Shown one piece after another: positions 24,540 to 64,000 of a stretch of DNA of 64,000 nucleotides. Both the position numbers and the translations under genes were made by a program. The stretch is from IMG/VR virus record IMGVR_UViG_3300032213_003144, positions 64,001-128,000 of that record, one strand, 5' to 3'. The first letter of the stretch is position 1, and each line of letters opens with the position of its first letter. The DNA is from a virus. The notes under the pieces are model-generated. The model saw only the letters and a list, made by a program, of their open reading frames with translations, searched no databases and had not been told where the DNA came from.

Positions 24540-24547
24540 TTGCGCTC

Positions 24548-25224: not shown

Positions 25225-25256
25225 TTTGACTCCTTTTCTTATTCTATTTTACTTTA

Positions 25257-26989: not shown

Positions 26990-28597
26990 TTACGTCCCAG
27001 TTTGTTCATTATTGCAGGTGTTTGTATCACGATTTTTTGTAACACCAGGATTAGACCAAAGTAATGGAACGCATGTTCCTCCTGGCGTGGAAGGAGGTAT
27101 GGTTGGAGTGGATATGTCAGTCAGCCTTGGCAGAACTATCAGATTCGGACCCTCAAGTGGTAATTCTTGAATCGTGAGGTTGCATGTGGCTCTAGCTATC
27201 TCTCCACGTGGAGATGATGCGCTATTGGCGTCTGGTGGCTGTTGAACCCTTTGTACCGAATTTATTGTTAAATCTACAATTGCAAACTCAATCCCGCTTC
27301 CACCAGTCCATGATGGATATATAAGTTGCTCTGTAAACATTTTATCCATACCAAGAAAAATAACTGATTCCGGCCTAGATGCCATCTGTCGTAACATTTT
27401 TAGTTCATCATCACATGAAGTCATTAGATTTGTGTTATCGCCAACCACAAACTCAAATGATATTTTCATAAGTTTGAAATTTCTAAAGTCCACAAATGGG
27501 GTGTTGTTTACTCTGTCTATTTCTGTCCAGTTTGCACCTAGGTCAGTGTATGAAACATTATTTGGATAATATCTAAACTGGAATCTGTCAGGTGTTAATG
27601 AATAGTCACCTTCTGATGTCCTGTAGTACTGGACCATCTCTGCTTTGGTATTGTCACCAAGGGCAAGTATTCTTGAATTAATTGATTTTTTTATGGTTGC
27701 TACTACTGCACGGTTTCTAGTACCACTGTCACGCTGTGCTGATTCTGCCTGTGCTGTAGCAAATGAAGAATTAGTTCCACTAGTAGTCGTGGTTTTTGCA
27801 GTTGTTCCGGCTTTTTTTGTGCTTGGGCCCTTTGCTGCTGCCGTTGGTGATTCAGCTTTTTCAGCAGCTGCATCTTCTGCTGCTATAACCTCTATTGCTG
27901 CACGTTTTGATAGACCTTGTAGCTCTAATTGCTCAATTCTTCTTTTTGTAAAATTTTCAAGATTTAATTCTTGAGCTTCACCAGTAAACTTTGAATATCT
28001 ATCCATTGAATATAATTCACCATATTGAGCTGCAGCAATTGTTTTTGATACTGGATAGAACCTTTTTTGTGCAGGATGGTACCAATATGGCGTGTAGTTG
28101 CTTTGAAGTGTGTCGCTTTGTTTTCTCCATTTGTTAAGAACATTAGTCTTATATGGATTTTTGTTATCAGGCAATCCAGTGTCCGACCAGTTAAAAACTT
28201 CTGAGGTAATGCTATATATCTCATTTGCATAAACAAAAGAAGAAATACCTACAGCATCAAGCTGGTACCTACCCCCGGTTTGTGGTTGGTTTGTGTAACT
28301 TGGCAGAACAAGTTCTGGAGTTGATTTAGGTTTTTGTTCTTGAAAAGTTAATTCATCACCATCGTTGTAAACGATATAACTATTATCAGAAATACTTGCA
28401 CCAGCTGTTGAGTATGGATACCAGTACTTAACGTTAGAAAAAGATGGAAGCAATGTCCAGCTAGAACCAGGAGGGAACCAGGTAATATTATTTTGAGCAA
28501 CAAATTTTTGTTTTATTGGGTAGCTTTTTTTTATGCTTTCAGGGGAGCTTAATGTGTACCCAATAGTCCCAAGATAAACGTCACCTCTACTAGGCAT
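26990..28597 (-). CDS. Tail tube initiator/baseplate protein
   Basis: C-terminal FQF.Y.PN.VSY...ISFEF...I.DL.I...G.I.RA.C.LT.QE; follows the tape measure. Confidence 0.55.
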   Translation of the reverse strand: MPSRGDVYLGTIGYTLSSPESIKKSYPIKQKFVAQNNITWFPPGSSWTLLPSFSNVKYWYPYSTAGASISDNSYIVYNDGDELTFQEQKPKSTPELVLPSYTNQPQTGGRYQLDAVGISSFVYANEIYSITSEVFNWSDTGLPDNKNPYKTNVLNKWRKQSDTLQSNYTPYWYHPAQKRFYPVSKTIAAAQYGELYSMDRYSKFTGEAQELNLENFTKRRIEQLELQGLSKRAAIEVIAAEDAAAEKAESPTAAAKGPSTKKAGTTAKTTTTSGTNSSFATAQAESAQRDSGTRNRAVVATIKKSINSRILALGDNTKAEMVQYYRTSEGDYSLTPDRFQFRYYPNNVSYTDLGANWTEIDRVNNTPFVDFRNFKLMKISFEFVVGDNTNLMTSCDDELKMLRQMASRPESVIFLGMDKMFTEQLIYPSWTGGSGIEFAIVDLTINSVQRVQQPPDANSASSPRGEIARATCNLTIQELPLEGPNLIVLPRLTDISTPTIPPSTPGGTCVPLLWSNPGVTKNRDTNTCNNEQTGT

Positions 28598-31500: not shown

Positions 31501-33543
31501 ATTGAATGGGTCAAGAGAAACCGCACCACCACCTCTGAATGCGCTAAGAGCTTTTTGGTCATAGGCCTCACCGCTTATGTTCCCCTTATTGAAACTGTTT
31601 CTTCTTGCCGTATGGCTCATGTCTGTGACATGTCCTGCTGTTCTGACTGTCCCATCTGCGTTATAGGTTCTCCCATTAGATATTCCTACTATCCCGCGTT
31701 GACCCATAAATGAAGTATTTCTCTGCGCCCCTAGCATGTATCCAGCCCCTACGGCACTAGCAGAACCAGCTCTGGCCCCAGACGCAAGTGATGGACCTCC
31801 TGGCCCAACTACAGCACCTCTGCCACCAGGCCCAACAGGACCTGGGACCCTTCCACCGCCAGCTCCAGGAACCGGGCTACCACCAATGCTTACCGTTCCT
31901 GCTGTTACGTTCATTTGCTGGGTTTTTAGTCTTCCGGCTTCTGGTGCCATTCTTCCACTAACTTTCCCCATGGTTCGCCCAGCAAGACTAAAAGCAAGAA
32001 GTGGGGCGAGAGTTGTCATTAGGCCTTTACCTAATCCACCTGTGAGCATCTTCGTCATCATCCCGAATATCTGTGCAACCATATTCATTATCTTCGTAAG
32101 GAATGGAAGAAGGTCAAAAAATCCTTTCTTAAGATTCATAAACAATTCTGAACCTTTTGAAATCATTCCAGCAAGAGCCTCACCAAAGGCGCTTACTTCT
32201 CCTTCGTTTTTTATTAATAAATCATTAAACAGCCATAAATTGCTAGCACCACCCTGAAGAGCTTTACCTATTGGCTTAAATGCTTTTTCCAGAACTCTTG
32301 CACCATCCTGAAGTGGTCGCATGTAGTCATTAACGCGTTTCCAGCCTTGCTTGAAATCTTTCATCCAACTGCCCATACGTTCGAACATACCGGTAGCTTT
32401 CGGTAAGAATTCCCGAATCGTCTTTACCATCCAGTTGCTTACGGAATCAACAGCATTGACCATGCCGTCGGTAATTGTTTCGAACCCCATTGACTGACCA
32501 ATTGTTGCACTTATTCGCTGAAGGTCTCTTTTGATTACCTTAAATACGCCCTCAAAAGCACCTTTTGTTGGTTCAAGGAACTGGTCTCCAAAGTCGGCAA
32601 ATTCAGTTTTTAACTGAGTCATGTATGACTTAAGTCGACCAATCAGTGTGTTATTTATTGCATCGAATTGCCCTGCCACTCCACCTTTTTCAGCAAAAAG
32701 ACCAGAAAACAGGGCATCCTTAAAGCCAGCTTTTGTTTGTGTGAACTTTGATTCCTTCAATGCTTTTTGCATCTCTGGTCCTAGTTTGTTCGCTTCGGCT
32801 TTTACATCCGCAAGACTTTTCTTCTGGTCATTGAGTGCAGCGACAACAGCTGCAACTTGCTCGATTGCCTTCTGTGGGTCTTGCCCAGCGGAACCAAAGT
32901 CCATCAATGCTTTTAAAGTTTTATTGCTTGCGTTTATCTGTGTCGAACTCATTGTTTTCGACATAACGGCATATGCTTTATTTAGACCATCAACACCAAG
33001 AATTGCCAGGTCTGCATCAGCCTGTAAGTTGCGCATTGCCATTCTGGTCTGATTCATTGCTGAACCGAACTGTTGTGCGCCCTTGCCTCTGTAGGCGTAC
33101 ATTGCTGCCTGTTGTTCGCGCATCGCTGCGGCCGCAGCTCCAAGTGCCATGGTTAGCGCTGCAGCACCTCCGGCAATTAACTGCATTGCCCCACCGTATG
33201 CCTTCATCAGGAATCTTCCCGAAGCAAAAAGTGCGTGAGTTGCAAGCATGGTTGCGCCGAGAAGACCCATTTCCAGAACAACGCCTTTAATGGCCATACC
33301 CAGGAACTTGGTCATTCCTTTCCCGGTCATTTTGACCATGGAATCTATTTGGTCAAAACTTTTTTTCCATTTTCTTGATGTATTCTGAAAGCTTAGAGAC
33401 GACCTGGCCATCTGTGCGCCGAGGTCACGACTACCCAGTTTCTTGGCTGCTCTATCAAGAGCAAGTAATTCGAGGCGTGCTTTTACAAGTTCTTTAGTCT
33501 TGGCATCAAATGAAATTTTGATTTTTACAAGCTCGTCTGCCAT
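28597..33543 (-). CDS. Tape measure protein with C-terminal M15-like peptidase domain
   Basis: 1648 aa, Ala/Gly/Met-rich helical; follows the chaperone; C-terminal ITSAWR..SDHVTGKAYD..HLH. Confidence 0.85.
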   Translation of the reverse strand: MADELVKIKISFDAKTKELVKARLELLALDRAAKKLGSRDLGAQMARSSLSFQNTSRKWKKSFDQIDSMVKMTGKGMTKFLGMAIKGVVLEMGLLGATMLATHALFASGRFLMKAYGGAMQLIAGGAAALTMALGAAAAAMREQQAAMYAYRGKGAQQFGSAMNQTRMAMRNLQADADLAILGVDGLNKAYAVMSKTMSSTQINASNKTLKALMDFGSAGQDPQKAIEQVAAVVAALNDQKKSLADVKAEANKLGPEMQKALKESKFTQTKAGFKDALFSGLFAEKGGVAGQFDAINNTLIGRLKSYMTQLKTEFADFGDQFLEPTKGAFEGVFKVIKRDLQRISATIGQSMGFETITDGMVNAVDSVSNWMVKTIREFLPKATGMFERMGSWMKDFKQGWKRVNDYMRPLQDGARVLEKAFKPIGKALQGGASNLWLFNDLLIKNEGEVSAFGEALAGMISKGSELFMNLKKGFFDLLPFLTKIMNMVAQIFGMMTKMLTGGLGKGLMTTLAPLLAFSLAGRTMGKVSGRMAPEAGRLKTQQMNVTAGTVSIGGSPVPGAGGGRVPGPVGPGGRGAVVGPGGPSLASGARAGSASAVGAGYMLGAQRNTSFMGQRGIVGISNGRTYNADGTVRTAGHVTDMSHTARRNSFNKGNISGEAYDQKALSAFRGGGAVSLDPFNNYSMRGAMGMGKALTMDQAAGSWYSERHAQREKNAEDRAYNAAVARERRDAAAAIIPKGAPGSGTSAVRRARAARLAAAEGTSFRDVRGSALRDFGQAVTDRVTGAGLKAYGAGAGLMAHGLQGRYDPNMQSETLMYNSDGSVRQEHYNPKTGKTVSDPSKYKGKTPLELRDVKQATIGGYVNAGELRDSAISRYKHSQMSVADGGTGRTGFMARKIERINLARDLNRINRNETKFGAASNKFGKSMGGKMGASMGLGLASQYAPEEMQGAMALGGMVSQFDARAGLAVAGLGGAWNAKSAGAGAMAGAAGGAALGSYLGPYGALAGAVIGGLAGAFKGMINKGKEEAKKAKEAMKNNMAEVFSSVVKQGAGKFFRSQDNLKALQESGYDTSTMKDRGSFEGIGAGYLSKAANIKAMVTGKVKTGGTVGDIASNKALLEQVLNNQEKMGVVTTEKERKDMFKNDGAVQAALNAAGTVSKGETSAYQMQDRVITNRLDQFVKMSGKSIPELEKMAHELGFNLYDTTIKFTDALKGMGLAAGKSADQMKQAFTDIFLAGSNLFTKARTQQEAQKTINQSSQGFRDQMLSGGLGGEEKTQATNDYFESYFTQALAASGNDPIEAYLSTQNLFGQGEEGGAFAKGATFEGMGKDVLSNEILKKQMATMSKEVLGTATTQVSGLLTEAGFSGDAGQIKERLTTMSKEDPTKFADFLRKMQAGELDFSATGNQDKGNALSFALNQAGLGGLTTTALEDLTGDGGAKDLDEVANRMSDASDEFKAGVKQFTDATKGFFTGKSDKPEWWDQKPDWYKSTDTSTPRGDTTSSRLSQTMARHGAMNSQLTGKRTITSAWRNTALGSINSDHVTGKAYDLIGQNLGQYQRLVHANGGFAEFHGTLADRHLHVVPGAGYGDTAVPSMSRMTSGGSGGSSNSNTMTVSINVSGGNGSPEQVANMVMMKLKDEQRKMQERS

Positions 33544-47871: not shown

Positions 47872-49950
47872 ATGGCTTGGAATTCATCCGAAAATAAGTC
47901 TGCTGGTCAAAAGCAGACTAAATCCGCCATTGGTTACGGCGCGCCCGTATCAAGTAACCCAAGTTACACGGATAAGCCATACAGGGACTCGTGGGATATT
48001 GAGCGTGCCTATAGAGAGGGCATGCAGAAAATTACCTGGGTTAACAGGTGTATAGATGCAATTGCTGGGAACCAAGCAAGACTTCCGATAATTCTAAGAA
48101 AAGACAATTCAAAAGACGGCGAAATCGTAGTCGGCCGTGAGGCCAAGCGTTCTTCATTGCTTGAGCTCCTCAACGTTAAATCAAATATCGGCGAGAACTC
48201 TTTTATTTTCAGATACAGACTTTCTGCCCAGTTACTACTTGGTACGCGCGGAGCATTTATCGAAAAGATTCGCGGACGAGATGGTGGCGTTATTGGGCTG
48301 AACCTTCTTCCGCCACAGTCAACTGCACCAATTCCTGACGCTAGAACATTTGTTTCTGGGTACGAAGTGCAGATGCCTTACGGTAAAAAAGTAATAATGA
48401 AGCCAGAGGATGTTGTCTGGATTAGAAGGCCTCACCCGCTAGACCCATATCTGTCGCTAACTCCATTGGAAGCATCTGGAGTTGCCGTAGAAATAGAAAA
48501 CCTAGCCAAGTTGTACAACAGAAACTACCTGCTTAATGACGGAAGACCTGGTGGATTACTTGTTGTCAGAGGTGAGATTGACGAAGACGATAAAGAGGAA
48601 TTACGCAATAGATTTAGGGGTAATTTAGGGAAAACTGGGCACACAACAGTTATCGCTGCAGACGAAGGTGTTGACTTTGTTGATACTTCGGCAAACCCAA
48701 GAGACGCTGCCTACATACAAATGCGTCAAATTACAAAAGAAGAAATTCTTGCTGCGTTTGGAGTTCCAGAATCAGTAATTGGAAATGCCTCAGGACGAAC
48801 GTTTAGTAACTCATCTGAAGAGATTAGAGTTTTCTGGGTAGAGACAATGTTGCCTCACTTGGAGCCAATAGCAAGAGCTCTCGATGAACTTGACGAAAAG
48901 TATTACCTTGACTTTGACACAAGCGAAGTTCCAATTTTGCTGCTTTACAAACAGGAACGTGAAAGATACCTAAAAGACGAATTGGGCCAAGGTCTCATCT
49001 CTGTGAACGAATACAGAATTGCGAGCGGAAGAAAAGAAGTTGAAGCAGACCTCGCTGATTCATTACTCATGAATCCGAACCTGATTCCTATTGCTAATAC
49101 AAAAAAGAAGATGGAAGAGAATGCCGCCCAGATACCCGGTGGCGCTCCTGGGGCACCAGGAATGCCTCCAATGCCAGGTATGCCACCAGTTCCAGGTATG
49201 CCACCAGTTGAGGGCGCAGTTCCACCACTTGACCCAAATACGATGCAAGGTGCAATGGCTGAAGTTGCAGCCGGTGGTGCTGGTGACATGGCTCAGACTA
49301 CGCTCCCACCAGAAGTGGCCGGAATGGCACCAGCAACTGGAGCAGCCCCAATACCGCAAGGCATGGCTAGCGACCCACAAGATGGTTTTCAGTACAAAAC
49401 AGCACTGACCGAGGATTTTGATAAATCGGAAATGGCGATTGAGCGCTGGTCAGAAATTCTCTCCAGAGGAATCGAGAGGGTCGTTGAAAGACAGCAAAGG
49501 GTTGTTCTGGAAAAGGCTGGCAGCAGCAAGTCCAAGAAAGCTCTGATGTCTGGGACTCTTGACCTTGATTCAATTTTCGCCACAGATACATGGAACAAGC
49601 AAATGGAAGACGACTTGCGTCCTGTTATTTCCGCAATAATCAATGACTCTTTTGAATTTAGAAAAGAATCGTATTCTCAAAAAGGACTCAAGCCGAGAAC
49701 AATTGCGCCTGCGACAATTAAGAAAAATATCGATTCACAGATATCAAGAATCATCTCAATCAACTCAGGTATTCGTTCTTCAATGGAAGAAATGATGATG
49801 AAATCATTCTCCCACGCTGGAGAAGAGCAAAGATTTTCCGTCTTTAGAGAAGAGCTTGTGGGCATGTACGCAAACATTCTTGCCAAGGACCAGTTGGAAA
49901 TTTCAGAAACTGAAGCAAAAAATGCATGGACGTTTGGACAGGTTGGATAG
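47872..49950 (+). CDS. Portal protein (HK97 family) with Pro-rich insert
   Basis: V..CID.IA, LL.G.AF, SPL-like TPL, N...PGG.L, EEILAAFGVP, NE.R...G. Confidence 0.9.
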   Translation: MAWNSSENKSAGQKQTKSAIGYGAPVSSNPSYTDKPYRDSWDIERAYREGMQKITWVNRCIDAIAGNQARLPIILRKDNSKDGEIVVGREAKRSSLLELLNVKSNIGENSFIFRYRLSAQLLLGTRGAFIEKIRGRDGGVIGLNLLPPQSTAPIPDARTFVSGYEVQMPYGKKVIMKPEDVVWIRRPHPLDPYLSLTPLEASGVAVEIENLAKLYNRNYLLNDGRPGGLLVVRGEIDEDDKEELRNRFRGNLGKTGHTTVIAADEGVDFVDTSANPRDAAYIQMRQITKEEILAAFGVPESVIGNASGRTFSNSSEEIRVFWVETMLPHLEPIARALDELDEKYYLDFDTSEVPILLLYKQERERYLKDELGQGLISVNEYRIASGRKEVEADLADSLLMNPNLIPIANTKKKMEENAAQIPGGAPGAPGMPPMPGMPPVPGMPPVEGAVPPLDPNTMQGAMAEVAAGGAGDMAQTTLPPEVAGMAPATGAAPIPQGMASDPQDGFQYKTALTEDFDKSEMAIERWSEILSRGIERVVERQQRVVLEKAGSSKSKKALMSGTLDLDSIFATDTWNKQMEDDLRPVISAIINDSFEFRKESYSQKGLKPRTIAPATIKKNIDSQISRIISINSGIRSSMEEMMMKSFSHAGEEQRFSVFREELVGMYANILAKDQLEISETEAKNAWTFGQVG
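49156..49209 (+). repeat. Short tandem repeat encoding PGMPP x3
   Basis: CCAGG(A/T)ATGCC(T/A)CCA units spaced 18 nt apart. Confidence 0.75.
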
Positions 49951-50058
49951 TTTCACTAAACTATTTCTGTAAAACATTCACTTTTTTTAAATACTTACAT
50001 TCTGGAACATGTTTTTCGTTTAATATCGACTAGCAGCCGAGAGAAGTTGGTTCCAAAA

Positions 50059-53000
50059 ATGTCAAATGAAGCATTCGAATACAAGTCATCGGCGCACGGC
50101 TCTCAGTCCATCAAAGGAACGGTCAGCCTAGACGAGGCCCAGGGGATAGTCGAATGTTTCGTAGCTGGAATTGGTAATAAAGACTCAGTCGGAGACGTAT
50201 GTGCTTCAGGAGCCTTCACAAAGAGCCTTCTTCGCAGAAAGCCAAGAGTTGTATGGGGCCACAACTGGAATGACCCTATTGGTAAAGTATTGGAAATATA
50301 CGAGGTTGGTCCACAGGACCCACGCCTCCCACTGAAAATGAAACTTGCCGGGATAGGCGGTTTGTTTGCAAAAGTTCAATTTAATCTAAGTTCAGAAAAA
50401 GGAAAAGAAGCATTTGCTAATGTCCACTTTTTCGGAGAAGAACAAGAGTGGTCGATTGGATACAAAACACTAAGAGCTCAGTTTGACCAAAAGTCGCAAG
50501 CAAATATTCTTTACGAAGTTGAACTCTACGAAGTTAGCCCTGTTCTCCACGGAGCCAATCAGCTAACAGGAACAATATCCGTTAAGGCAGATGATTCCGC
50601 CTACGGAGGTTCAGTAGCAATGATGCCGCAAAGAGAAGAGAGCAACGGCTACGAAGAAATGGAGAAGGAACTCTCCAATCTATTCGGTGCAAAAGTTTCT
50701 GTTCATTCAATCGATGGCGACGAGGTCGTATTCACACGCCAAGAGATGAACGGTGCGAAGAAGTACAAGTGCGGCTTCATGAGAAATCAAGGCCGATACA
50801 TGTTCGGAACTCCTGAAGTAATCAATATTCCGCAGTCCCCAGTTCGTTCTCCTCAATCAGCACCAATGCCTGTGGTGAGCGGAAGACCTACTCCACCCAA
50901 CGACCCACAACGCGTCATTAGACCACAACAGATGCCTTCAATACCAGTTGCGATTAAGCCAAGCGACAATGGGCTAATGATGATTCCTCTTCCAGCTGTT
51001 CAGTATGACTCAAACGAAAAGCCGTCCCTGGACAAGGAGGAAGCAGACCTCCGTGATGCGCTGTTAAAGATAGTTTCACGCCACGGCAAATTTAACGAAG
51101 ACTCTAACGGCGTATGGGCTGGATACAGCCCTGCAGAAGAAAACGAAGTAGCACGTATCGGTGTTAAATGCTCAAACTGCGTCTTCTATCAAGGCGGCTC
51201 AAAGTGCAAAATTATTGACATGCCAGTTGAGCCAGAAGGGAAATGCAGATTTGCTGTTATTCCAAATGGGATTGTTTTGAGCAGTGGTTCCAAAGAACTC
51301 GAAGAGCATGTTTCCGAAGCAGAAAATGCAATCATCGATGTACTAGAACTAAAATACCCAGGCGAGTTTGTTCTTGGAATTGTCAGAAATGCAGTTGGTA
51401 AGAAAAAGAAGAAAAGAAATAAATACAAAAATCTTTCAGAGTTTGGTGATGACGACGACATGGGTGAAAAGTCGTACGTAATACCAGTCGAGCCAAGTTT
51501 TGCATTTAGAGTAAAAACAGCCCTTGACCCAATATTCGATTACCACAGAGCAGAGACTTTTGTTGACTCAGAAGGAATAGTGATTACCTCTGGGGTAACT
51601 GAAAATCTCATAGACGCAGTCGATACGGCTCTTCACAACTTAAAAAAAAAATTCTCAGAACATGAAATAGAGGGAAAATCCCTCGGTTACAGAATAGGTC
51701 GGTCGCTTGGTTCGAGGCTCGTAGATAGACCAAACCTCGGTGGTGGTAGGGATAGAAACAACCGTGGCGGCGGTCGTGGATTCGGGATGCCGGATGGCGA
51801 CCTTGACCCCAGGACAAGAGTTGACAAGAATAGGGATGGAACACTTTTTGATAATGTCCCAGGATGGGAACAGCCAGACCCAACCCCAGATGGACCTGGT
51901 TCGATAAATAACCGAAAACTCTCTTCCTCACAAAGAAGAGATGTTGCCAATATTCCGAGCGAGAGCGTAAACCCAGAATCGGTAGACGGTGACGTAATAA
52001 AGAGCCGCAAACCAAGGTATACGGCTGATGACCTTGGTGAAATCCTTGGAGAAAAGAAGAAGCCAACGAAGAAGGCAGTAGCAAAAAAATCTCCTGTTAA
52101 AAAAGAAAAAGTAAAGCGTGGAGAACTTGATTTCGCTAAGGGTCCCAAAAAAGATAAGACACCATCACTATCCTCTGGTGAGGAAAGACCGCCACGTACT
52201 GCAGTTGCAATGCAGATGGACCCAAAGAATTCGAAGCTTGCAAGACAGATTGATTACGACCCACAGAATGGTGACCTCACTGTTTATTACAGAGATGGCA
52301 AAAAAGAAACATTCAATGATGTTCCTTATGACCGCGTGCGTAAGGCTGGATTTGACGACAAGCCAGATGCATTAATCAGTGCACTACAGAGAGAACAAAA
52401 GAAACCACAAGGCAGGATTAGTCTTGCATCTGGGGAGCAAGAAAAGAGACTTACCCGCCACTCTGGTGACCCAAAATTTGAATCACTTGTATCTCCAGAA
52501 GAACTTGAAAAGCGTAAGAAGTTTGAAGAAGTAATTAAAGACTGGAAAGACTCTGGTTACGGATGGGAAGACGTTCCTAGATACAAGCCAGACGTCTACA
52601 AGTCCCCGGATTATTTGCGTGGTAGGGAAATGGGCGTCAATCAGGCCAAAGTTATGTGGCGTGGAGATAGCACGGTAGAGAGACCAAAGGGATTCAACGA
52701 AAAGCAAAAAGCCTCACTTGATTATCAAGAGTGGTATTCACGAATGGTGATGAGGGCTGGAGCTTTTCTAGAAGCATCACGTGGCGATGACAACGAATTC
52801 TACAACGGCATGGAAGATGCCATGCATGAATTCATGTACAACAATAGACCAGATATAACAACCTACAACATCGATGGAGATAGAAAAGAACCGATGGCCG
52901 ACTGGATGCGTCAGTACGGATTCGACCCAGGCTCACCGACTCCATTAAGAAAGAAAAAAGAAGGAAAGAAGAGAAGTTCACTCTCCCTCTCTTCTGGCGC

Positions 53001-56000
53001 AGACGACGATACAAGACCAAACTTTGATGAAGAGAATTACGAAAGTGATACCAACGTAGATTTCTACGACACCCTTCTTGACATGATGGGCCCAGAAGAA
53101 GAAAGACCAAAAGTCACTTCTCGCAAAAAGCCAAAAGACATGAGTGATGAAGAGATTTATCGCAAGAGAACAACAACCGGAGCATCCCTGCAGGATGTTG
53201 CGGAAGAACTTGGTCTAACTAGAATGGAAGTTAGGAAGCGCGAACAACGACACATGCGCAAAATGCGCAATGAAAAAGACGGCGTATCACTTTCTTCTGG
53301 AGCAAGCGATGACTGGGCCACTTCTAGGGGATACGAGCCAGACAGATTCGACCTTCGCGAAACGATGAATCAAATTGGTAGAGGAAACATAATGGCCATA
53401 TCTGGTGGCCGCGTTGAGCGTAGAGGGAATGAAATGATTCTTCCTTCTACAAAAGACCAGCAAGTAGTCATCGGGTACAACTCGGTTCCAGACCTCTACT
53501 ACGTCAGAGCTGAGCAGAAAATAAATACAGGTAAGGACAAGGGAACCAACAGAATTCTTGCGCAATGGGACGAGGTTTATGCTGACGAAATTGGCGAACT
53601 CGCATATCAGGCAAGTCTCAAGCCAGCAAACCTCAATAGTGAGAACAAGGAGTACTGGAAGCTCGGCAAGGGAAATCAATTTGCAGACAGACTCGTTGAT
53701 AGACGTAGCGGAAAGCTCGTAAGCAGAGAATCAAGAAATCTTCCATCAAAGCCAGCGCCAGAGGAAAGCCCAACTCTTTCTTCGGGTGGCAGAGGTCGTG
53801 ACTACTACAACTACGACATAACAACAACCGATGAAGGAAATGGATTACTCGACCAGGTGCATGATTACCTTGAAGAGAACCCCCTAATCAAAGATGACAT
53901 AACAACCGATATTGCAGACATGCTCGGTGGAGATGGAATAGTTGAGGCTAATGGCTTTGACACAAAAAAGGCATTTGACCTGGTTACTGGTGGAGACGAT
54001 GAGTTCCAGGATTATATGGACATCGTTGATGATGCCATGGAGGCCCTAAGTAATGGCTCCCTAGCAAAGCACAAGGCAACCGTTCGCGATACGAATGTAA
54101 GACTTGAGTCAGCAAAGCCAGGCAGTAATGAAGCAGGAAAACTCGAAGCAATCCGTGATAGGTCGTACGAGTGGATTGGCGACATAAACAAGTATTCACG
54201 CGTATCCACAATTAAAGATAAGAAGAATATTGAAGCCAGCGACGTGGCAACAAGAATGATTTCCAAAGAGCAAGATTCGCTCTGGAATGCTCGCGCGTCA
54301 ATAACAGAAAAATATATTGAAGATATTGCTTCAGCTGGAAAAGAATCAAAGCGCCGTGTATCAATCAGCGCAGTAGATACAGACTCTCGCGACATTCCAG
54401 AGTATGATTTAGCTCTCTCGTCTGGCAGTGTTTTTAAGGATAAACCAGCATCAAAAACGCTTTCCGGTAAGGCTGATGGCCTTTCTCTTGCCTCTGGAGA
54501 AAATAAAAAGATTTATGACGAAATAGGTAAGTCCATTCTTGAGGCATTAATTGAGATGGATAAGAACCCAACAGCAACCTATTGGGACGTACCGTGGAGA
54601 ACACCAACCCTATACGCAAGAAACCCAACAAAGAATCGCCTTTATCAGGGAATGAACTCCCTACTGCTTGCCAATGCGCATAGGCAGAATAAGTACAGAG
54701 GAAATTTCTGGGCCGGGAAGACTCAGTGGGCAAAGTTCGGTGGAACAATAAAGAATGGCAAGGATGGAGTAAATATCCTTGTTCCAAGAGAGGGTTCAAC
54801 CGGAAAATACTTTGTCGTACAGACCGTATATAACCTCGATGATATTGAAGGGCTCCCAGATGCATATGTAAAGAAGCTTCTAGATACAGGAAAGGAACTT
54901 CTTGACCCAGCGACAAAGATAAAGGACGCCGAGTCGGTAATGGAGGAAATTAATCCTGTCATCAAGTTTGGCGGAGATGCTGCATACTTCTCAATTACGA
55001 ATGACCATATTCAAATGCCACCATACGAGATGTTTAAGTCTCCAGAGCAGTACTACTCAACCCTACTGCATGAGCTAACACACTGGACTGGCGGAAAGTC
55101 TCGTCTTGGAAGAAAGCAGGTAGGCCGCCAACAGGACAAGAAGGCTTATGCATACGAGGAATTAATTGCAGAAATGGGTTCTTCTTTCCTTCTTGCCGCA
55201 CTTGGCATCGCACCAGAAGTAAGACAAGACCACGTTGTTTATATCAAGAGTTGGATTTCCAACCTTCGCGAGGACCCGGGTGCATTCGTTAGAGCAATGA
55301 CTGAGGCGCAGCAGGCGGCAGACTGGGTCATGGATAGGTCTCCAACAATGAGAAGACTTTCCGGTGTACCTGATAGCGAAAGAAAAGGAAAGCCAGATGC
55401 GGTTGATGCTGGGGAATCCGCAGTCTCAGAAGTAGTTGAAGAGACTAAGGGCTCTGTTACAGCACTCTCATCCGGCTCTCAAGTTGGATTAAGGAAAGCA
55501 AAAGAACTCAGATACTTTGGCGATGAAAAAGAATATGGCTCAGGCATAACTCAAAGAGACTCCAGTGGAAGGATTCTTGATGAATCTGGAGCACTTTCTC
55601 TTTCAAGTGGTGCAAAACCAATCGTCAGCCTTGACGGTAAAACAACGATTCCAAGACTAGACGACTCTGTCTCGTATAGAGAAAAGTATAAGTTCCTTCC
55701 TGATGAATTTGAACCAACAGAACAACAAAAGGCTTCAATAGACACGCTTGTTCATATGCTTGAAAGTGAGACACCAGGGATTGTCGCTATTGGTGCTGGT
55801 GCTGGTTCAGGAAAGACAACCAACCTTAAACAGAATGCTCGTGCAGTTGCCGCACTTTACCCTGGAAAACAAATTTATTACACCGTATTCAATAGAGGAA
55901 ATGCTAAAGACGGAAACAGGGTGATGCCTAGAAATACAGGTGTTGCAACTGGGAACCAAATAGCATATTGGTCACTTGTTCTTGGAACTGGAGACGCCTT

Positions 56001-59000
56001 CTATGGTGCTGGAACAACCAGAAAGATACAACTCGGAGTTGGTCCAAGAGACTCCAAGAAGTTGCGAGGAGCAAAACGTAACACCGTGAACGTTGCAACC
56101 ACGTTTGAGGGAGAAACAAAGGAATTCGCAGGAGAGATACCAGGGTACAGAGAGCTTGGGTACACAAGCTATGACTCTGCACCGAATATCGCAGAACGCC
56201 TTGCTAAAGATGGGATTGTTGACGAAGAAACTGATGATGGTTTTACTATTTCCCAAAATCTCAAAAAAGCTCTTGGCAGGTTTGCTGAAAGCTCGGATGA
56301 GAAGCTGTCAAAACAACATTTCCTACTTCGTGATATAGAGAAAATTCAGGCATTACAAAATGGTGAACCAGTACCAACTGAAGATTCAATCGATGAAAAA
56401 ATGGTTCAATATGCACAAATGCTTTGGGATGAAACAGTTGACCCAAAATCAAACGTGCTTATCCCGCAGGACTATCAAATCAAGATGTGGGCCCTAACAA
56501 ATCCAGACCTTAGGTATGACAAAGGACTGATTGGTCACAGGCCAAACGAAACAGTGTTTGATAAAGTTTTTCTTGGAACCGTTGAGGAAATGAACTCCGG
56601 AAAAATAAAAGTCGGAGACCTTGTAGAATTTAAAATTCCAGAAACTGGAGAAAAAGTTGCAGCAGTAATACGAAAACTAAACCCTCCATCAAAGAAAGAA
56701 ACAAAAAAGGGTGAGCTATCTGGCAGTAGACAAGTAACCGGAACTGTATCGATTGTTTCTGTCACGAGTGATAAGCCTCTTGATGTGTTCATGTTCGACG
56801 AGGCCCAAGACGTAAACCCTGTGTTGGCAAAAGTACTCGCCGATAATGCAAAGAACATGCCGATAATAATGGTTGGCGACTCACGCCAAGCAATCTATGG
56901 GTTCAGAGGAGCCATGGATGCCCTGGAGAAAGCTAATGCAACATTCAGACTTCCTCTAACACGTTCATTTAGGTATGGAGCAATCCCTGCATATTTAGCC
57001 AATGTCGTGCTGATGCAAGGCAATATAGACGATTTTAACTTTTATCAAAACATGGGAACACCCGAAAAAAACATATGGCACCATGTTGTAGGAGAGGCGC
57101 AAAATGTTGTTATAAACGCGCTCAACATAAACGGACCAGATGGGAAAATACTTCCTAAAAAAGAACTTGAAAAGAAACTTAAATTCATAGAAGTTAAATA
57201 CAAACTTGGCGGAAGAGCTGTCGACTTTAAGGGCAAAAACGAAAAAGAAGTAAAAGACATCATTTCAAAACTTTACGACGAACATGTCCCACGCGCTGAA
57301 GGTCAGATAGTTGAGGACATGACTAGTGCTGATGCTGTTCTAACTTCTACCAACTCCGGAGTAATGGTCGAAGCCTTGAAGGTAATCCAGGACGGTATTA
57401 ATGCACATCAAATCGCGTATCTCGACCTAGATGGAATAGAAGATATAAAAAATCCAGAAGAGCTAGCTGGAAGACTAAGAACATTATCCGAGAAATACAC
57501 TCTTGATGGTGTTGCTGTAGACCTTATAGAAATATTGGAAAAAGATGGTAGAGATTCAATGCTCAATGCCGTCAATGAACTTAGAGAAGAATATGCTCCA
57601 GGTGGAGCTGACGGGAAAATACCAGCCATTGGCATACCTGCCGACACACATGAAAAGTTTCTTGATTTCTTCACTCAACTCGACTGGATTATTGGTGACC
57701 TTGATAAGAAGTTTGGAATCGAAGGAAGACCAAAACCATCTAAACTACTTAAAGACGTATGGAGATTTGATAAGAAAAAGGGCAGATACCCATCAAAAGA
57801 TGAGATGCTGGCAAAAATTGACAAGATGATTAAGGGTGGAGAATCAGAACTTCGCACGCTTTACAACCTTGCTTACCCCAAGTCCAAGGATGGAGGGGTA
57901 AGAGGTGATGCAAAAGGGGCAAGATTCTTTAAAGACCTTTTACGTCCACAAGGCCAAAAATATACTGACATAAATGGAACTGAGGTTAAGTACCAAGGCC
58001 TTAGACCAATGCGTGAAGGAATCAATCTTCCGAATATGGAATCTGGTCGAGACCACATAACTACCGAAGAGATGGACAGAGTCGGAAAGCTTAAGCCTGG
58101 AACAAAATCTGGAAGCAGCCAAAAAATTTCCTGGATAATACCCAAGAAGGAAGAGAGCGTATCTGATGGTGAGGTATTCGTAAAACTTCACATCGGAGAA
58201 AACGGAAAGCCATCTGGAGCGTTGATAATTGCAGGCGATGGAGCGCACGGAGGAAAGTACAAAGTCAGAAGATGGAATAAGGCCAAGAAAACCTGGAGCC
58301 CAATCGAAGAGGGGAAACCAGGGAAGATTGACTACCACGGTGATATATCAAAAGTTATAAAAAAGATGAAAGCTGAATACCCAGACGCCGTAATTGAATT
58401 TAGGCAGGGACTAATACAGCAAGTTGGTACAGCTCAGACATTCCCATCAGACATATCTGATGATTTTGTCCCACCAATGAAAGGTGATTTGCCAGATAGT
58501 TCTGTGCCAAGAGCTTCGCTTCCAGGGTTCTTCATACAAGGAAAAGACAGCGAAGAAACTGCGCGTCTTGCCAATGAACTCGGAAACAGGGTTAGACAAC
58601 TTGCCACGGAAGGAAACACGGATACCGACATTATGACGGTTCATGTTTCCAAGGGCAGGGAGTGGAAGAGGGTCAGACTCGCTGATGATTTCAAAAATCC
58701 TGAAGACATGGTCCCAGTAATACCAGAAGAAGAATTAGCAAAGTTAAGTCCAAAGGACAGACTTGCTGTCGAGAGACAGCTCCAATTGATGCGCAGAGAA
58801 GAGCACAACAAGGTATACATTGCAATAACCAGAGCTCAAGAGCAAATAGATATTGGCGCAGTTCTTGCAAAACTTTATTTTGATGATTCACAAAACGCAT
58901 CTATAAAAAGTGCAAAAGATAAAATTGCAGAAAATCCAGATGGAATATATGACGAGCTTCAGGCTCCTGCTGGTTTCTATGTTCCGTATTCTGGTGATAC

Positions 59001-61131
59001 AGAAGCACGCGATGCTGCCAGAAAAGAACGCAGAAAGAGATTGGATGAGTCTTTCGATAGATACGTCAAGTCACAAGGAAAGACCAAAGATGTCGCTCCA
59101 GAAGAAGATGATGAACCAGAGGTGGAGGACGAATCTGGCGGTTTTGACTCTGGTGACCCTGATTTTGTTGATGTTGCTGGACCTGATGATGATGGAGCTG
59201 AAGAATTCGACGAAGAAGATGGCGACGTGCAGTCACTCTCCCTTTCTTCAGGAGCAAAGAAGAAGAAAACCAATAGGGCAAATAGGCGTCTTCCATTTAG
59301 TGAGCAAGAGAGACAAAGCCTTGCCGATGGAGACATATTGCGCTCAAAGAAAATACCCAAGAAGCGCAAACCAGCTCCGTCAAAAGAGGAGTTTGACGAC
59401 CTAGCTCTTGCCTCTGGAGCCAATACACCAGAGGGAAGATACGCCAGAAGACTGAGGTCGATAAGCCTTTCCAGCGGCAACAATGAGCTTGGCGCTGGAG
59501 CACAGAATCAAAGAATAAGTGGAAAGAGATTCGCCCGCAATATTTCCGGACCAAAAGACCTTGCATCGATAAGAGTTGATGGTGACCCAAGTAAAGACCC
59601 AAACGCAAAGAGAAAAATTGAATATGCGATGAGTTTCTGGCGTGGTGTCAGGGAACGCGGAATTGCTTTTGACCCCCAAGACGCATCACAAGATAGAAAG
59701 TCGATAGAAATTAATAACGCCATTTCTTCTGTGTCAAAATCCATGGCTACGCGACCAAAAGCCAAAATTGGTAAAGTTTCACAGAATCAAATAAAAGATG
59801 ATGTGAACCCAGACGAGTGGTTTGTCCCAGTATCAAAACTTAGGGATGCAATCAGAATTCCAACAGAATTCTCCAACTCCCCCGCGGACCCATCCAATCC
59901 AAATAGCAGAATGATTGCACGATGGACCCAAACAAGGCCATTAAGCAACGAAGAGTTGGGCAAGATGCTCTCTCTCAGCAAGACCGACATTGCAAAACTG
60001 TCAGACGATGATGCAGGAATAACCCACGACTCGGTTAGATTCCTGCTTGCGGCCATGGGGCAGCAGGAAGGTTTTGAGGCATGGAACTTTTTTGCTCCAA
60101 CATCTACTACCGAAGATGGAGTTTCCGCCATGTCTACTTCTGAGAAGTTCGTAGAGAATCTCGGAAGAGCCAACATGCGAGACAGGTTCATCATCGAAAC
60201 CTTTGGAAAAGACGCTTTCCCTTACTGGATTGACAAAGATGAGAATACCGTCATCGGCCAAAAGGAGTACTCATCGCTAGGCGAGGTCAGCGAGATGTCG
60301 AAGTTCAGGTCATCGGGTCTGTTTAGTAATAAGAGGAACGAATCAAACTTCTCCTCAACAGCCGAGGAGATGCTTCTTGAAGAGGCAGTATTTGGTGGAG
60401 ATGACACTCCAAGCGACATGGTTAAGCAGTCTGTCGTGGAAGCAGCTTCAGCCCCATCAGACAAGACCAGCCGAGAGCAGTTTGACGTAGACCAGCTCCT
60501 TGAGTCGTTGGGTATCGATAAGAGTGATAAGTGGCATGAAGAGCTGAAGAGGAGAATGGTCGAGTCTTTCGGGGTTGACGATGTCGGCCTGAATACGAGA
60601 GAGATTGCTAGAAACTGGGAGGCCGGTGGAGTCCCAACTACATACATAAATGAGATGATTAGAACAGGGATGATTCCTGATGCAAAGTCGGTATGGAAGA
60701 AAGATGAATCTGGCAAAAAGCTAGACCAAGAGCTGGCAGCATCTAAGCACTCCGTGTATGAAGCCCTGTATGAATTTACTCAGTCAAAGCACGCTGCTGA
60801 TAAAGCCAAAAACACTAGACGGAATAGGGACTACATCCTTAATTCTTCTGACTTCACGGTCTCCCATAAGGGTGTCGCTGCCAGAAAGGGAGCCACATTC
60901 TCAAAGAAAACTGGTGATGAAAGAAGATTCAGTCAGGGCGAACTACAGAATGTTGTAAATCGTTTTAATGAAATTTTTGGAACTAACTACAAGATTGATG
61001 ACATCTTTAGTGCTGAACAGTTGCGCAATGCAACAAAGAGATTGAGAGAGGAAGGCAGGACTCTGTATGGAGATGACGCCTCCGAACTCGGTAAAAGAGT
61101 TATCCTTAAGAAAGATAAAGACAAGAAGTAA
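50059..61131 (+). CDS. Giant polyvalent protein: HK97-type prohead protease fused to KTSC-like, sigma70-r4-like HTH, ArdC (ssDNA-binding + zincin) and SF1/UvrD-like helicase domains
   Basis: Protease GHNW..PIG, WSIGY, LYEVSPV; ArdC W..PW, Y.G.N.L.L, HELTHWTG, YAYEELIAE; helicase AGAGSGKTT, DEAQD, VGDSRQAIYGFRGA, LTRSFR, TVH.SKG.EW, YIAITRA. Confidence 0.85.
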   Translation: MSNEAFEYKSSAHGSQSIKGTVSLDEAQGIVECFVAGIGNKDSVGDVCASGAFTKSLLRRKPRVVWGHNWNDPIGKVLEIYEVGPQDPRLPLKMKLAGIGGLFAKVQFNLSSEKGKEAFANVHFFGEEQEWSIGYKTLRAQFDQKSQANILYEVELYEVSPVLHGANQLTGTISVKADDSAYGGSVAMMPQREESNGYEEMEKELSNLFGAKVSVHSIDGDEVVFTRQEMNGAKKYKCGFMRNQGRYMFGTPEVINIPQSPVRSPQSAPMPVVSGRPTPPNDPQRVIRPQQMPSIPVAIKPSDNGLMMIPLPAVQYDSNEKPSLDKEEADLRDALLKIVSRHGKFNEDSNGVWAGYSPAEENEVARIGVKCSNCVFYQGGSKCKIIDMPVEPEGKCRFAVIPNGIVLSSGSKELEEHVSEAENAIIDVLELKYPGEFVLGIVRNAVGKKKKKRNKYKNLSEFGDDDDMGEKSYVIPVEPSFAFRVKTALDPIFDYHRAETFVDSEGIVITSGVTENLIDAVDTALHNLKKKFSEHEIEGKSLGYRIGRSLGSRLVDRPNLGGGRDRNNRGGGRGFGMPDGDLDPRTRVDKNRDGTLFDNVPGWEQPDPTPDGPGSINNRKLSSSQRRDVANIPSESVNPESVDGDVIKSRKPRYTADDLGEILGEKKKPTKKAVAKKSPVKKEKVKRGELDFAKGPKKDKTPSLSSGEERPPRTAVAMQMDPKNSKLARQIDYDPQNGDLTVYYRDGKKETFNDVPYDRVRKAGFDDKPDALISALQREQKKPQGRISLASGEQEKRLTRHSGDPKFESLVSPEELEKRKKFEEVIKDWKDSGYGWEDVPRYKPDVYKSPDYLRGREMGVNQAKVMWRGDSTVERPKGFNEKQKASLDYQEWYSRMVMRAGAFLEASRGDDNEFYNGMEDAMHEFMYNNRPDITTYNIDGDRKEPMADWMRQYGFDPGSPTPLRKKKEGKKRSSLSLSSGADDDTRPNFDEENYESDTNVDFYDTLLDMMGPEEERPKVTSRKKPKDMSDEEIYRKRTTTGASLQDVAEELGLTRMEVRKREQRHMRKMRNEKDGVSLSSGASDDWATSRGYEPDRFDLRETMNQIGRGNIMAISGGRVERRGNEMILPSTKDQQVVIGYNSVPDLYYVRAEQKINTGKDKGTNRILAQWDEVYADEIGELAYQASLKPANLNSENKEYWKLGKGNQFADRLVDRRSGKLVSRESRNLPSKPAPEESPTLSSGGRGRDYYNYDITTTDEGNGLLDQVHDYLEENPLIKDDITTDIADMLGGDGIVEANGFDTKKAFDLVTGGDDEFQDYMDIVDDAMEALSNGSLAKHKATVRDTNVRLESAKPGSNEAGKLEAIRDRSYEWIGDINKYSRVSTIKDKKNIEASDVATRMISKEQDSLWNARASITEKYIEDIASAGKESKRRVSISAVDTDSRDIPEYDLALSSGSVFKDKPASKTLSGKADGLSLASGENKKIYDEIGKSILEALIEMDKNPTATYWDVPWRTPTLYARNPTKNRLYQGMNSLLLANAHRQNKYRGNFWAGKTQWAKFGGTIKNGKDGVNILVPREGSTGKYFVVQTVYNLDDIEGLPDAYVKKLLDTGKELLDPATKIKDAESVMEEINPVIKFGGDAAYFSITNDHIQMPPYEMFKSPEQYYSTLLHELTHWTGGKSRLGRKQVGRQQDKKAYAYEELIAEMGSSFLLAALGIAPEVRQDHVVYIKSWISNLREDPGAFVRAMTEAQQAADWVMDRSPTMRRLSGVPDSERKGKPDAVDAGESAVSEVVEETKGSVTALSSGSQVGLRKAKELRYFGDEKEYGSGITQRDSSGRILDESGALSLSSGAKPIVSLDGKTTIPRLDDSVSYREKYKFLPDEFEPTEQQKASIDTLVHMLESETPGIVAIGAGAGSGKTTNLKQNARAVAALYPGKQIYYTVFNRGNAKDGNRVMPRNTGVATGNQIAYWSLVLGTGDAFYGAGTTRKIQLGVGPRDSKKLRGAKRNTVNVATTFEGETKEFAGEIPGYRELGYTSYDSAPNIAERLAKDGIVDEETDDGFTISQNLKKALGRFAESSDEKLSKQHFLLRDIEKIQALQNGEPVPTEDSIDEKMVQYAQMLWDETVDPKSNVLIPQDYQIKMWALTNPDLRYDKGLIGHRPNETVFDKVFLGTVEEMNSGKIKVGDLVEFKIPETGEKVAAVIRKLNPPSKKETKKGELSGSRQVTGTVSIVSVTSDKPLDVFMFDEAQDVNPVLAKVLADNAKNMPIIMVGDSRQAIYGFRGAMDALEKANATFRLPLTRSFRYGAIPAYLANVVLMQGNIDDFNFYQNMGTPEKNIWHHVVGEAQNVVINALNINGPDGKILPKKELEKKLKFIEVKYKLGGRAVDFKGKNEKEVKDIISKLYDEHVPRAEGQIVEDMTSADAVLTSTNSGVMVEALKVIQDGINAHQIAYLDLDGIEDIKNPEELAGRLRTLSEKYTLDGVAVDLIEILEKDGRDSMLNAVNELREEYAPGGADGKIPAIGIPADTHEKFLDFFTQLDWIIGDLDKKFGIEGRPKPSKLLKDVWRFDKKKGRYPSKDEMLAKIDKMIKGGESELRTLYNLAYPKSKDGGVRGDAKGARFFKDLLRPQGQKYTDINGTEVKYQGLRPMREGINLPNMESGRDHITTEEMDRVGKLKPGTKSGSSQKISWIIPKKEESVSDGEVFVKLHIGENGKPSGALIIAGDGAHGGKYKVRRWNKAKKTWSPIEEGKPGKIDYHGDISKVIKKMKAEYPDAVIEFRQGLIQQVGTAQTFPSDISDDFVPPMKGDLPDSSVPRASLPGFFIQGKDSEETARLANELGNRVRQLATEGNTDTDIMTVHVSKGREWKRVRLADDFKNPEDMVPVIPEEELAKLSPKDRLAVERQLQLMRREEHNKVYIAITRAQEQIDIGAVLAKLYFDDSQNASIKSAKDKIAENPDGIYDELQAPAGFYVPYSGDTEARDAARKERRKRLDESFDRYVKSQGKTKDVAPEEDDEPEVEDESGGFDSGDPDFVDVAGPDDDGAEEFDEEDGDVQSLSLSSGAKKKKTNRANRRLPFSEQERQSLADGDILRSKKIPKKRKPAPSKEEFDDLALASGANTPEGRYARRLRSISLSSGNNELGAGAQNQRISGKRFARNISGPKDLASIRVDGDPSKDPNAKRKIEYAMSFWRGVRERGIAFDPQDASQDRKSIEINNAISSVSKSMATRPKAKIGKVSQNQIKDDVNPDEWFVPVSKLRDAIRIPTEFSNSPADPSNPNSRMIARWTQTRPLSNEELGKMLSLSKTDIAKLSDDDAGITHDSVRFLLAAMGQQEGFEAWNFFAPTSTTEDGVSAMSTSEKFVENLGRANMRDRFIIETFGKDAFPYWIDKDENTVIGQKEYSSLGEVSEMSKFRSSGLFSNKRNESNFSSTAEEMLLEEAVFGGDDTPSDMVKQSVVEAASAPSDKTSREQFDVDQLLESLGIDKSDKWHEELKRRMVESFGVDDVGLNTREIARNWEAGGVPTTYINEMIRTGMIPDAKSVWKKDESGKKLDQELAASKHSVYEALYEFTQSKHAADKAKNTRRNRDYILNSSDFTVSHKGVAARKGATFSKKTGDERRFSQGELQNVVNRFNEIFGTNYKIDDIFSAEQLRNATKRLREEGRTLYGDDASELGKRVILKKDKDKK

Positions 61132-61271
61132 GACGAAGGTCCAGGGTCTACATTTCCATCTAAACCACTAAATATTGCTAATCCATTCCAGAGGCGCGTG
61201 GTAGGTTATAATTTAGACCATTAACAAAAGGTAACACCAACTGGTGATTGCCTGTAAATTTCAGGAGTCAT

Positions 61272-62944: not shown

Positions 62945-64000
62945 ATGACGGGTGATAGAAACAAGACACGAGTAATCGTTTCTCAACGATTGATATCGCC
63001 TCTATCGTGCTGCAATAATTTCAATTCAAAAGCACTTGAATTCCGCTCGTCTGTAGTTCAGTCTCTTAGTTCTTCACGGCTTGATGCTGACGCAGCAGTT
63101 AAGGCTGCAATGGGCAAAAAACCGACATACGAAGATACAGATAATAGAAAACGTGAATTCACTGGAACAACAAAACCGGGTGTGACAGAGATTGCACCAG
63201 GAATCCGAGTCGAGGGGAATCAGGCTTGGGAAGAAGGCCGTGGCTTGGTTTTATACCCTAGCTGGAAATCAAAACGCTCCATGGACCTGGACGCAAATTT
63301 TGGTTGGATTAAAACAGAGAAAGATATAGATTTTCAAGCTGCGCAGAAAAAAAGAAAAGAAAAACCACAGCTTCAGTTCACCAAGTATCAGGTGAGTAAA
63401 AAAACAGGCGACGTAATACCTGATTCAGAAGTAAATATAGACATGGCTTACCCACATCTTGGTTTGTCGAGAGCGCAAAGAAGAAAAAAGAATAACTATA
63501 TAAGCAATCCAAAAATGGAATTTAAGGCTGGTCTTCCTGGTCGCTCTCTTGAATCCAGAGTTCCCGGCGGTAACCTCTTGGCAAGAACTGCAGGACGATT
63601 TGGAATAATGAGGGATGCTGCTAACAAATTTAGGTGCCCACCAGGAACACCAGCGGCAAACCAATTCACAGACCACCTTGGCTCCAACTGTTTTGGCGTT
63701 AGTGCTGAGAGAGCTGCCAAGTTCATAGCTGAAAAAATTTCAGATTTAATGAAGGTTAATGACGACTCAATTTCTCTTTCTTCTGGGGCAAAGTCAACAT
63801 GGAGAGAAAGACTCGGACTTGCTAGGCCAGATGTTGAGTTACCTGGTAGAAGCCCATCTTTTGATTTGGAGACAGGGGACAGAATACCGACAACGCCGGC
63901 TGAGATTGTTGATGTCCCAGGCAGGTTGAGATGGTTTAAGAATGCGACCGTAAATGCACAGAGAAACCTTGCTCGCTCTGAAAGCGTTATCCAAAAGCTT
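62945..64000 (+). CDS. Large head-associated protein, truncated by the window end (absent from ORF track)
   Basis: Open frame MTGDRNKTRV... to the window end with no stop; contains KFRCPPGTPAANQFTD and SISLSSGA. Confidence 0.7.
   Translation, partial: MTGDRNKTRVIVSQRLISPLSCCNNFNSKALEFRSSVVQSLSSSRLDADAAVKAAMGKKPTYEDTDNRKREFTGTTKPGVTEIAPGIRVEGNQAWEEGRGLVLYPSWKSKRSMDLDANFGWIKTEKDIDFQAAQKKRKEKPQLQFTKYQVSKKTGDVIPDSEVNIDMAYPHLGLSRAQRRKKNNYISNPKMEFKAGLPGRSLESRVPGGNLLARTAGRFGIMRDAANKFRCPPGTPAANQFTDHLGSNCFGVSAERAAKFIAEKISDLMKVNDDSISLSSGAKSTWRERLGLARPDVELPGRSPSFDLETGDRIPTTPAEIVDVPGRLRWFKNATVNAQRNLARSESVIQKL

Follow-up and report, generated by a model that had tools for sequence, protein, structure and literature searches.

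The window analysed here is a stretch of 64,000 nucleotides, bases 64001-128000 of the 170,425-bp IMG/VR virus record IMGVR_UViG_3300032213_003144 (genome G000), which is rated complete by CheckV. Within it lies a gene for a polyprotein of 3690 amino acids (aa) that begins with an HK97-type head maturation protease and is punctuated by 13 copies of a five-residue motif, [V/S/T/A]-L-[S/A]-S-G, referred to here as the tag. Summed over the possible proteases that could read them, the tags are very probably processing sites that delimit exchangeable cargo modules, a conclusion drawn from sequences and models, from which we infer cleavage, packaging and the identity of the protease. The 13 tags, in order along the gene, are:

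51274..51288, plus strand, tag 1, VLSSG, lost in three close relatives
52165..52179, plus strand, tag 2, SLSSG, in a stretch with a predicted local distance difference test (pLDDT) score <50
52420..52434, plus strand, tag 3, SLASG, which arrived together with module F42
52984..52998, plus strand, tag 4, SLSSG
53287..53301, plus strand, tag 5, SLSSG
53773..53787, plus strand, tag 6, TLSSG
54412..54426, plus strand, tag 7, ALSSG
54484..54498, plus strand, tag 8, SLASG
55462..55476, plus strand, tag 9, ALSSG
55597..55611, plus strand, tag 10, SLSSG
59239..59253, plus strand, tag 11, SLSSG
59404..59418, plus strand, tag 12, ALASG
59464..59478, plus strand, tag 13, SLSSG

These 13 copies stand against a mean of 0.24 and a maximum of 4 for L[SA]SG in 2000 shuffles of the polyprotein, and every copy that an earlier note on this DNA had listed was found in its place. 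That note had also remarked that the codons differ between copies, which was seen as well; because of these differences a DNA-level repeat was ruled out, and the conservation lies at the protein level. Over the 24 tags of the genome, the consensus extends to seven residues, [L/I/P]-S-L-[S/A]-S-G-[A/E/S], and the Ser-Ser pair of the tag is invariant. Pairwise identity among 12 close relatives is 88-100% in the L-S/A-S-G columns and 55-75% in the flanks, and the tag therefore appears to be under selection. Tag 1 is the apparent exception, being the weakest of the 13, with VVGSG or VVGSS at the same place in three close relatives.

None of the tags lies inside a Pfam domain match in the polyprotein. 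An AlphaFold2 model of residues 700-1490, built from an alignment of collinear relatives, contains five folded blocks with pLDDT about 70-86 and long stretches <50 between them, and all seven tags that it covers (model residues 8-12, 93-97, 281-285, 382-386, 544-548, 757-761 and 781-785) fall within the low-scoring stretches, between folded blocks. As 38% of the model residues have pLDDT <50, the chance of placing seven out of seven there at random would be ~0.001. The flanks of the tags are mildly charged (36.8% D/E/K/R vs 31.4% overall), meaning that the earlier description of charged linkers between domains stands for the position and only weakly for the charge. Fold searches with the model gave no usable match, and PDB sequence searches were also empty.

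The polyprotein gene and the modules identified in it are located as follows, where Pfam is the source of the domain names:

50047-61131, plus strand, open frame of the polyprotein, 3694 codons (residue numbers of P0001 start at 50047)
50059..61131, plus strand, protease-led polyprotein gene, 3690 aa, from an ATG four codons inside the open frame
50146..50577, plus strand, Peptidase_S78 (HK97-type prohead protease), residues 34-177 (PF04586, 42.9 bits, cut-off 21)
50602..51276, plus strand, post-protease module with a Cys-rich end, residues 186-410
52180..52419, plus strand, KTSC-like module of family F42, 85 aa, absent from the 91%-identical relative P0003
53173..53271, plus strand, Sigma70_r4-type helix-turn-helix (HTH), residues 1043-1075, inside the 101-aa module F7
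54505..55299, plus strand, ArdC-N and MPTase-PolyVal zincin peptidase (HELTH), module F1, from Pfam and PHROG matches
55732..58848, plus strand, UvrD-type superfamily-1 helicase with a long insert, within the tag-free 1214-aa module F4
59473..61131, plus strand, C-terminal module F2, 552 aa, P0001 residues 3141-3694

Translation probably begins at the ATG at 50059, since this is the first codon of the database copy P0002 (3690 aa). The HK97-type protease that had been read at the N-terminus was recovered as Peptidase_S78, matched also by PHROG 3244 (head maturation protease), so that the polyprotein is led by a head protease. Its His (VVWGH), Ser (EWSIGY) and His (PVLHGAN) are invariant across 25 diverse homologues, and from knowledge of the family we take these to be the catalytic residues. 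The S78 domain occupies a head-module location, after the portal gene and before the capsid gene, and is single-copy in each of four genomes (G000, G022, G031 and G037). As for the other domain calls, the HTH (27.4 bits with the segment scanned by itself), ArdC and helicase hold as profile matches, while the KTSC profile scores 19.7 bits, under the cut-off of 25, making "KTSC-like" fair wording. ArdcN covers residues 1487-1579 and MPTase-PolyVal residues 1627-1751, with pieces of the UvrD helicase spread over residues 1896-2934, and these Pfam and PHROG bounds bear out the claim that neither ArdC nor the helicase contains a tag. Module F2, with 78 members, is one of the most widespread families and has a confident fold (mean pLDDT 84); no convincing match to this fold was found in the PDB (Foldseek E no better than 0.4; VIA-align Z at most 5) or in the ESM Atlas (template modelling score, TM, at most 0.24).

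When all of the proteins were split at their tags, 1198 segments of at least 30 aa resulted, and at a reciprocal coverage of 60% or more, 1041 of them group into 129 module families. Between lineages these families come in permuted order, so that homologues do shuffle modules at the tag, which the earlier note had proposed to check, and some families are common to protease-led and protease-less proteins. The ArdC/zincin module, internal here and C-terminal elsewhere, is flanked by 14 different modules on the left and by 14 on the right, and BLAST matches end within 25 residues of a tag in 31% of cases, vs 17% for randomly shifted matches. The acquisition of a domain along with a tag, which the earlier note had also proposed, can be seen in P0003, a protein 91% identical to the window protein that differs by lacking exactly the 85-aa KTSC-like module and one tag. 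In the Actinomycetia phage DSL-LC01, a stand-alone protease-associated homologue ends ~13 residues past the aligned position of tag 1 (...IPDGIV).

Relatives of the polyprotein are encoded on >500 IMG/VR contigs, and of the 109 giant proteins fetched in the protein search, 95 match the protease domain. The S78 domain is N-terminal in 94 of these 95 homologues, the remaining entry being truncated at its N end. In almost all of the fetched S78-bearing giants the commonest 4-mer is the tag, which occurs in clade-specific flavours (S/R/K/G-LSSG, RFSSG, GFASRG, RGLASG and GLAS-[T/S/R], with GMRSR, STRS and DTGRM in further lineages) around a near-universal core of Leu/Phe/Met, then Ser/Ala/Arg, then Ser. 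Lineages whose protease is ~70% identical (L213, L214, P0101 and L220) carry 19-20 copies of G-[M/F]-R-S-R, 8 of D-T-G-R-M and 12 of S-T-R-S. Tag enrichment is absent from the ArdC/helicase giants that have no S78 (P0102-P0109). In P0006 and P0011 a permissive pattern picked out FGGLSSTE within the helicase as a tag; this was rejected as an artefact, since it is not the flavour of that lineage. On the protease tree the flavours cluster, with 36 changes vs 64.6 when shuffled; shared ancestry alone would give such clustering, and it is therefore not counted as co-evolution. In lineage L220 (L220:11476-21243), the protease gene (460 aa) is separate from the tagged cargo gene (>3256 aa). For the portal and the protease, the nearest relatives come from Gordonia and Brevibacterium phages and from a lake Actinomycetia phage, with ~40-49% protein identity (~41% for the protease domain against the closest phage-collection records); going solely by these two proteins, the hosts are probably Actinobacteria. 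No DNA-level resemblance to any isolate in the phage collection was found.

The tag is not confined to the polyprotein and recurs, beyond what the earlier note had described, in two other giant proteins of the genome (GP-B and GP-C) and in the tail tape measure. Those that lie in the window are:

62945..64000 and beyond (L003:945-9044), plus strand, GP-B, the second tagged giant, 2699 aa, running off the window
28597..33543, minus strand, tail tape measure, 1648 aa, assigned because it follows the sheath and tube genes
31777..31791, minus strand, tape-measure tag SLASG (context P-SLASG-A), residue ~586, in a Gly/Pro-rich variable region

With the strict pattern SL[SA]SG, genome G000 has 12, 3 and 8 sites over its three giant proteins. 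GP-B has 3 tags, the first at 63773-63787, together with an HExxH at residue ~571 (stop-to-stop frame) and a MuF-like head-morphogenesis region at 2113-2291, and GP-C (L004:5108-12859; 2583 aa) has 8 tags, RNase_T exonuclease and ParB-C matches and two HExxH modules. Three other genomes, with different flavours, likewise repeat their own flavour in separate large proteins, with 17 and 5 sites in G022 (GFASRG), 9, 9, 2, 2 and 1 in G037 (GLAS-x) and 14, 7 and 2 in G031 (R[FL]SSG). Lineage-matched tags were found in the tape measures of G000, G031, G037 and most of 20 further genomes (loci L297-L318), giving tape-measure/cargo pairs such as GGLSSG/GLSSG, GFASG/GFASR, GMRSQ/GMRSR and RLSSG/RLSSG. 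The concordance of flavour among the large proteins of a genome, with codons differing, points to one genome-encoded reader. In G031, GP-B-type and GP-C-type modules are fused in one 3517-aa protein that adjoins the polyprotein.

The single most likely version of this processing, and not a secure one, is that the fused head protease cuts the tags inside the capsid. The protease-led protein would be taken into the prohead through its N-terminal domain, the one HK97-type maturation protease of the phage, and the ArdC/zincin, helicase, HTH and other modules would ride in with it. Once activated, the protease would cut exposed tags at the conserved hydrophobic-[Ser/Ala/Arg]-Ser core, the bond between the small residue and Ser being the candidate scissile bond, as for herpesvirus assemblin, and the freed modules would remain in the head and be delivered with the DNA. 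The three giant virion-associated polyproteins (13, 3 and 8 tags) would in this way be divided into ~27 modules, and a new module could be recruited by insertion with one tag. Points favouring S78 as the reader are the Ser in the core, which would suit an assemblin-like enzyme, the position of the protease at the head of the main tagged protein and its being the sole S78 per genome. The major capsid protein (455 aa; G000 140976-142343, L006:976-2343) has an N-terminal coiled coil that ends AYAAAAADMNH-LSS-HE, and an L-[S/T]-S-[R/H]-E element at the end of the coiled coil is kept in 20 capsid proteins of the L/F-SSG clade; maturation may take place at its L-[S/T]-S-[R/H].

Several observations weigh against cutting by the head protease. 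Nothing resembling a tag stands at the corresponding site in the capsid proteins of the GFASR, GLAS and GMRSR clades, and S78 is 66-79% identical across clades with tags as unlike as SLSSG, GFASRG, GMRSR and DTGRM. At equal capsid divergence, S78 divergence is no larger between flavours (effect 0.006), in a crude test of the L/F-SSG clade only that is confounded by phylogeny. The tape-measure tags recur at about residue 42 and about 565-630 with a flavour that matches the cargo, and since the tape measure is assembled outside the head, a tag there would be hard to explain by a prohead-confined protease. Furthermore, the tags could instead be read by one of several HExxH modules, which occur in modules of the GP-B, GP-C and ArdC types, and the family is known from metagenomes only. 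When the protease domain was modelled in complex with a 71-aa peptide carrying two tags, the score was 0.16 against a mark of 0.32, which speaks neither for nor against binding.

A serious rival, given a lower probability than the head protease, is that the tags are cut by a phage zinc metalloprotease and not by S78, either in the cytoplasm or after ejection into a new host. The candidate zincins are the GP-B-type HExxH near residue 570-600, the GP-C-type HEWGH modules and the ArdC-linked MPTase, and for a thermolysin-like enzyme the cut would fall immediately N-terminal to the conserved Leu/Phe/Met. Such a reader would accommodate both the near-invariance of S78 while tags diverge and the lineage-matched tags of the tape measure. 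HExxH occurs in the GP-B homologues of G000, G031, G037 and G022, one to three HE[WY]GH modules occur in the GP-C-type proteins of G000, G037 and G022, and homology to the N-terminal part of GP-B reaches L149, L158 and L161. Processing of polyvalent proteins by MPTase before or after injection has also been proposed, in passages of Iyer et al. (2017; PMC5512222). However, no HExxH region reaches the Pfam peptidase threshold (the best, Peptidase_Mx, has 18 bits for a cut-off of 27), and presence in every tagged genome has been established for no single zincin family. MPTase-PolyVal (PF18818) is ruled out as a universal reader because it is absent from G037, a genome with >20 tags. Cytoplasmic cutting before assembly would also remove the reason for linking cargo to a head protease.

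A further HExxH protein, of 517 aa (G000 24737-26290), was rejected as a reader, being encoded away from the virion module and giving no match to a peptidase profile. It follows a MoxR-like AAA_5 ATPase at a locus beyond the window (L296:3976-6290; G000 23976-26290) and contains the conserved motif ...IRAHE[LM]MHAKVSP.... The pair is found in all four genomes examined and resembles ATPase and metallopeptidase/VWA pairs, with no profile match.

That the tags are not cut at all is unlikely. They would then be hinge, docking or modification sites (Ser glycosylation or phosphorylation), or weak contacts with the capsid interior or tail lumen, and the polyproteins would stay whole, as the N4 virion RNA polymerase does. 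Their position in disordered linkers suits docking or modification too, as does the invariant Ser-Ser pair, and a structural contact common to head cargo and tape measure could account for a tag on each. Yet a protease heads the polyprotein, the stand-alone protein of the related phage DSL-LC01 ends close to the tag 1 position, modules fused in one lineage are separate genes in another, and a plain linker would need no selected, lineage-specific sequence of 5-7 residues. Least probable of all, and very improbable, is cutting by a host protease, with tag flavours that follow different hosts: the flavours are clade-specific and the hydrophobic-[A/S]-S core resembles the site of host Prp, reported as F-A↓S in both capsid and scaffold proteins of Staphylococcus phage 80alpha, but the hosts here are probably Actinobacteria, which are not known to encode Prp, the tag is confined to the proteins of this phage family and absent from the S78-less ArdC/helicase giants, and a host enzyme would cut before packaging.

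A literature search for the motif or for a protease-led phage polyprotein returned no paper on the tag, the nearest being Iyer et al. (2017) and papers on giant-phage proteases. Iyer, Burroughs, Anand, de Souza and Aravind (2017; PMC5512222) described, in the passages relevant here, polyvalent proteins of phages and conjugative elements whose embedded peptidases are predicted to release domains, drew an analogy to RNA-virus polyproteins and placed the assemblin-like peptidase, when present, at the C terminus. The polyprotein resembles these in uniting unrelated conflict domains (ArdC-N, MPTase and helicase) in one polypeptide among virion genes, and indeed ArdcN, MPTase-PolyVal, a UvrD helicase, an HTH, a KTSC-like segment and further modules are found in one chain. 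It differs in that the S78 peptidase is N-terminal, and not C-terminal like the assemblin-like peptidase of those passages, which also describe no repeated cleavage motif; relative to them, the tag, its flavours, its spread and its presence in the tape measure are new here.

In T4, phiKZ and SPN3US, T4-type proteases are known to process packaged proteins at a sequence motif (PMC5694885, PMC10052503). Like T4 gp21 with the capsid-targeting sequence of IPI-III and Alt, phiKZ gp175 and SPN3US gp245, the present system would use one short motif to mark many head-internal proteins for the maturation protease, with cargo that is ejected with the DNA. In those phages the cargo comes mostly from separate genes with one or a few sites, whereas here S78 is fused to up to ~20 modules and the core is Ser-Ser. 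Their motifs end in Glu (L/I-x-E, at which a gp21-type protease removes an N-terminal targeting peptide; S/A/G-x-E), while the tags have no Glu at conserved positions and the protease is S78 and not T4-type. In herpesvirus pUL26 (MEROPS S21), an N-terminal assemblin and the scaffold share one chain and release occurs at hydrophobic-x-Ala↓Ser. The likeness lies in an N-terminal serine protease followed by cargo, the phage S78 domain having the invariant His, Ser and His; the difference is that the herpesvirus protein has two sites and one scaffold domain, and the phage protein 13 sites and enzymatic cargo. Tail-internal proteins are also cut at short Gly/Ser-rich sites, in the course of assembly or infection, as the lambda tape measure matures from gpH to gpH* and Tal of lactococcal phage Tuc2009 autoprocesses at GGSSG↓GG. 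Neither has a site in common with head cargo, unlike the tape-measure tag, which copies the cargo flavour of the same genome.

The polyprotein gene lies in a head module, and three of its neighbours are located in the window as follows:

46300-47613, minus strand, large terminase, head module
47872..49950, plus strand, portal protein, immediately 5' of the polyprotein gene
61248-62924, plus strand, acidic protein, 558 aa, between the polyprotein and GP-B

The 558-aa highly acidic protein has no Pfam match, no PHROG match and no tag, and may be a scaffold or decoration protein. The HK97-fold capsid gene sits 15.8 kb beyond the end of the polyprotein, and the tail sheath gene and the 1648-aa tape-measure-like gene are upstream on the minus strand. 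In Gordonia phage Chidiebere (NC_071005.1 9181-25151), which is among the nearest cultured relatives, separate genes fill the interval from the portal to the S78 protease, with annotations of RNA ligase, VIP2-like ADP-ribosyltransferase, HTH protein, a second "head maturation protease", tail proteins, endolysin and hydrolase. These genes may be an unfused counterpart of the cargo string.

It may well be, then, that this is a large uncultured phage family with a short, lineage-specific peptide "cutting code" common to head-packaged cargo and tape measure, in which modules join the injected arsenal by means of one tag and the capsid protease forms the first bead, in hosts that are probably freshwater Actinobacteria. 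The arrangement could be regarded as the double-stranded DNA phage equivalent of two others, the polyprotein of RNA viruses and the fusion of protease and scaffold in herpesviruses. The tag shared by head cargo and tape measure poses the question of where and when one phage protease would meet both. If the tags are cut, they would provide a map, readable from sequence, of what these phages deliver, with ~27 modules in this genome, most of them without an assigned function, as well as a simple rule for the recruitment of new anti-defence modules. The tag and its protease would also make a portable pair, and a possible tool for loading capsids.

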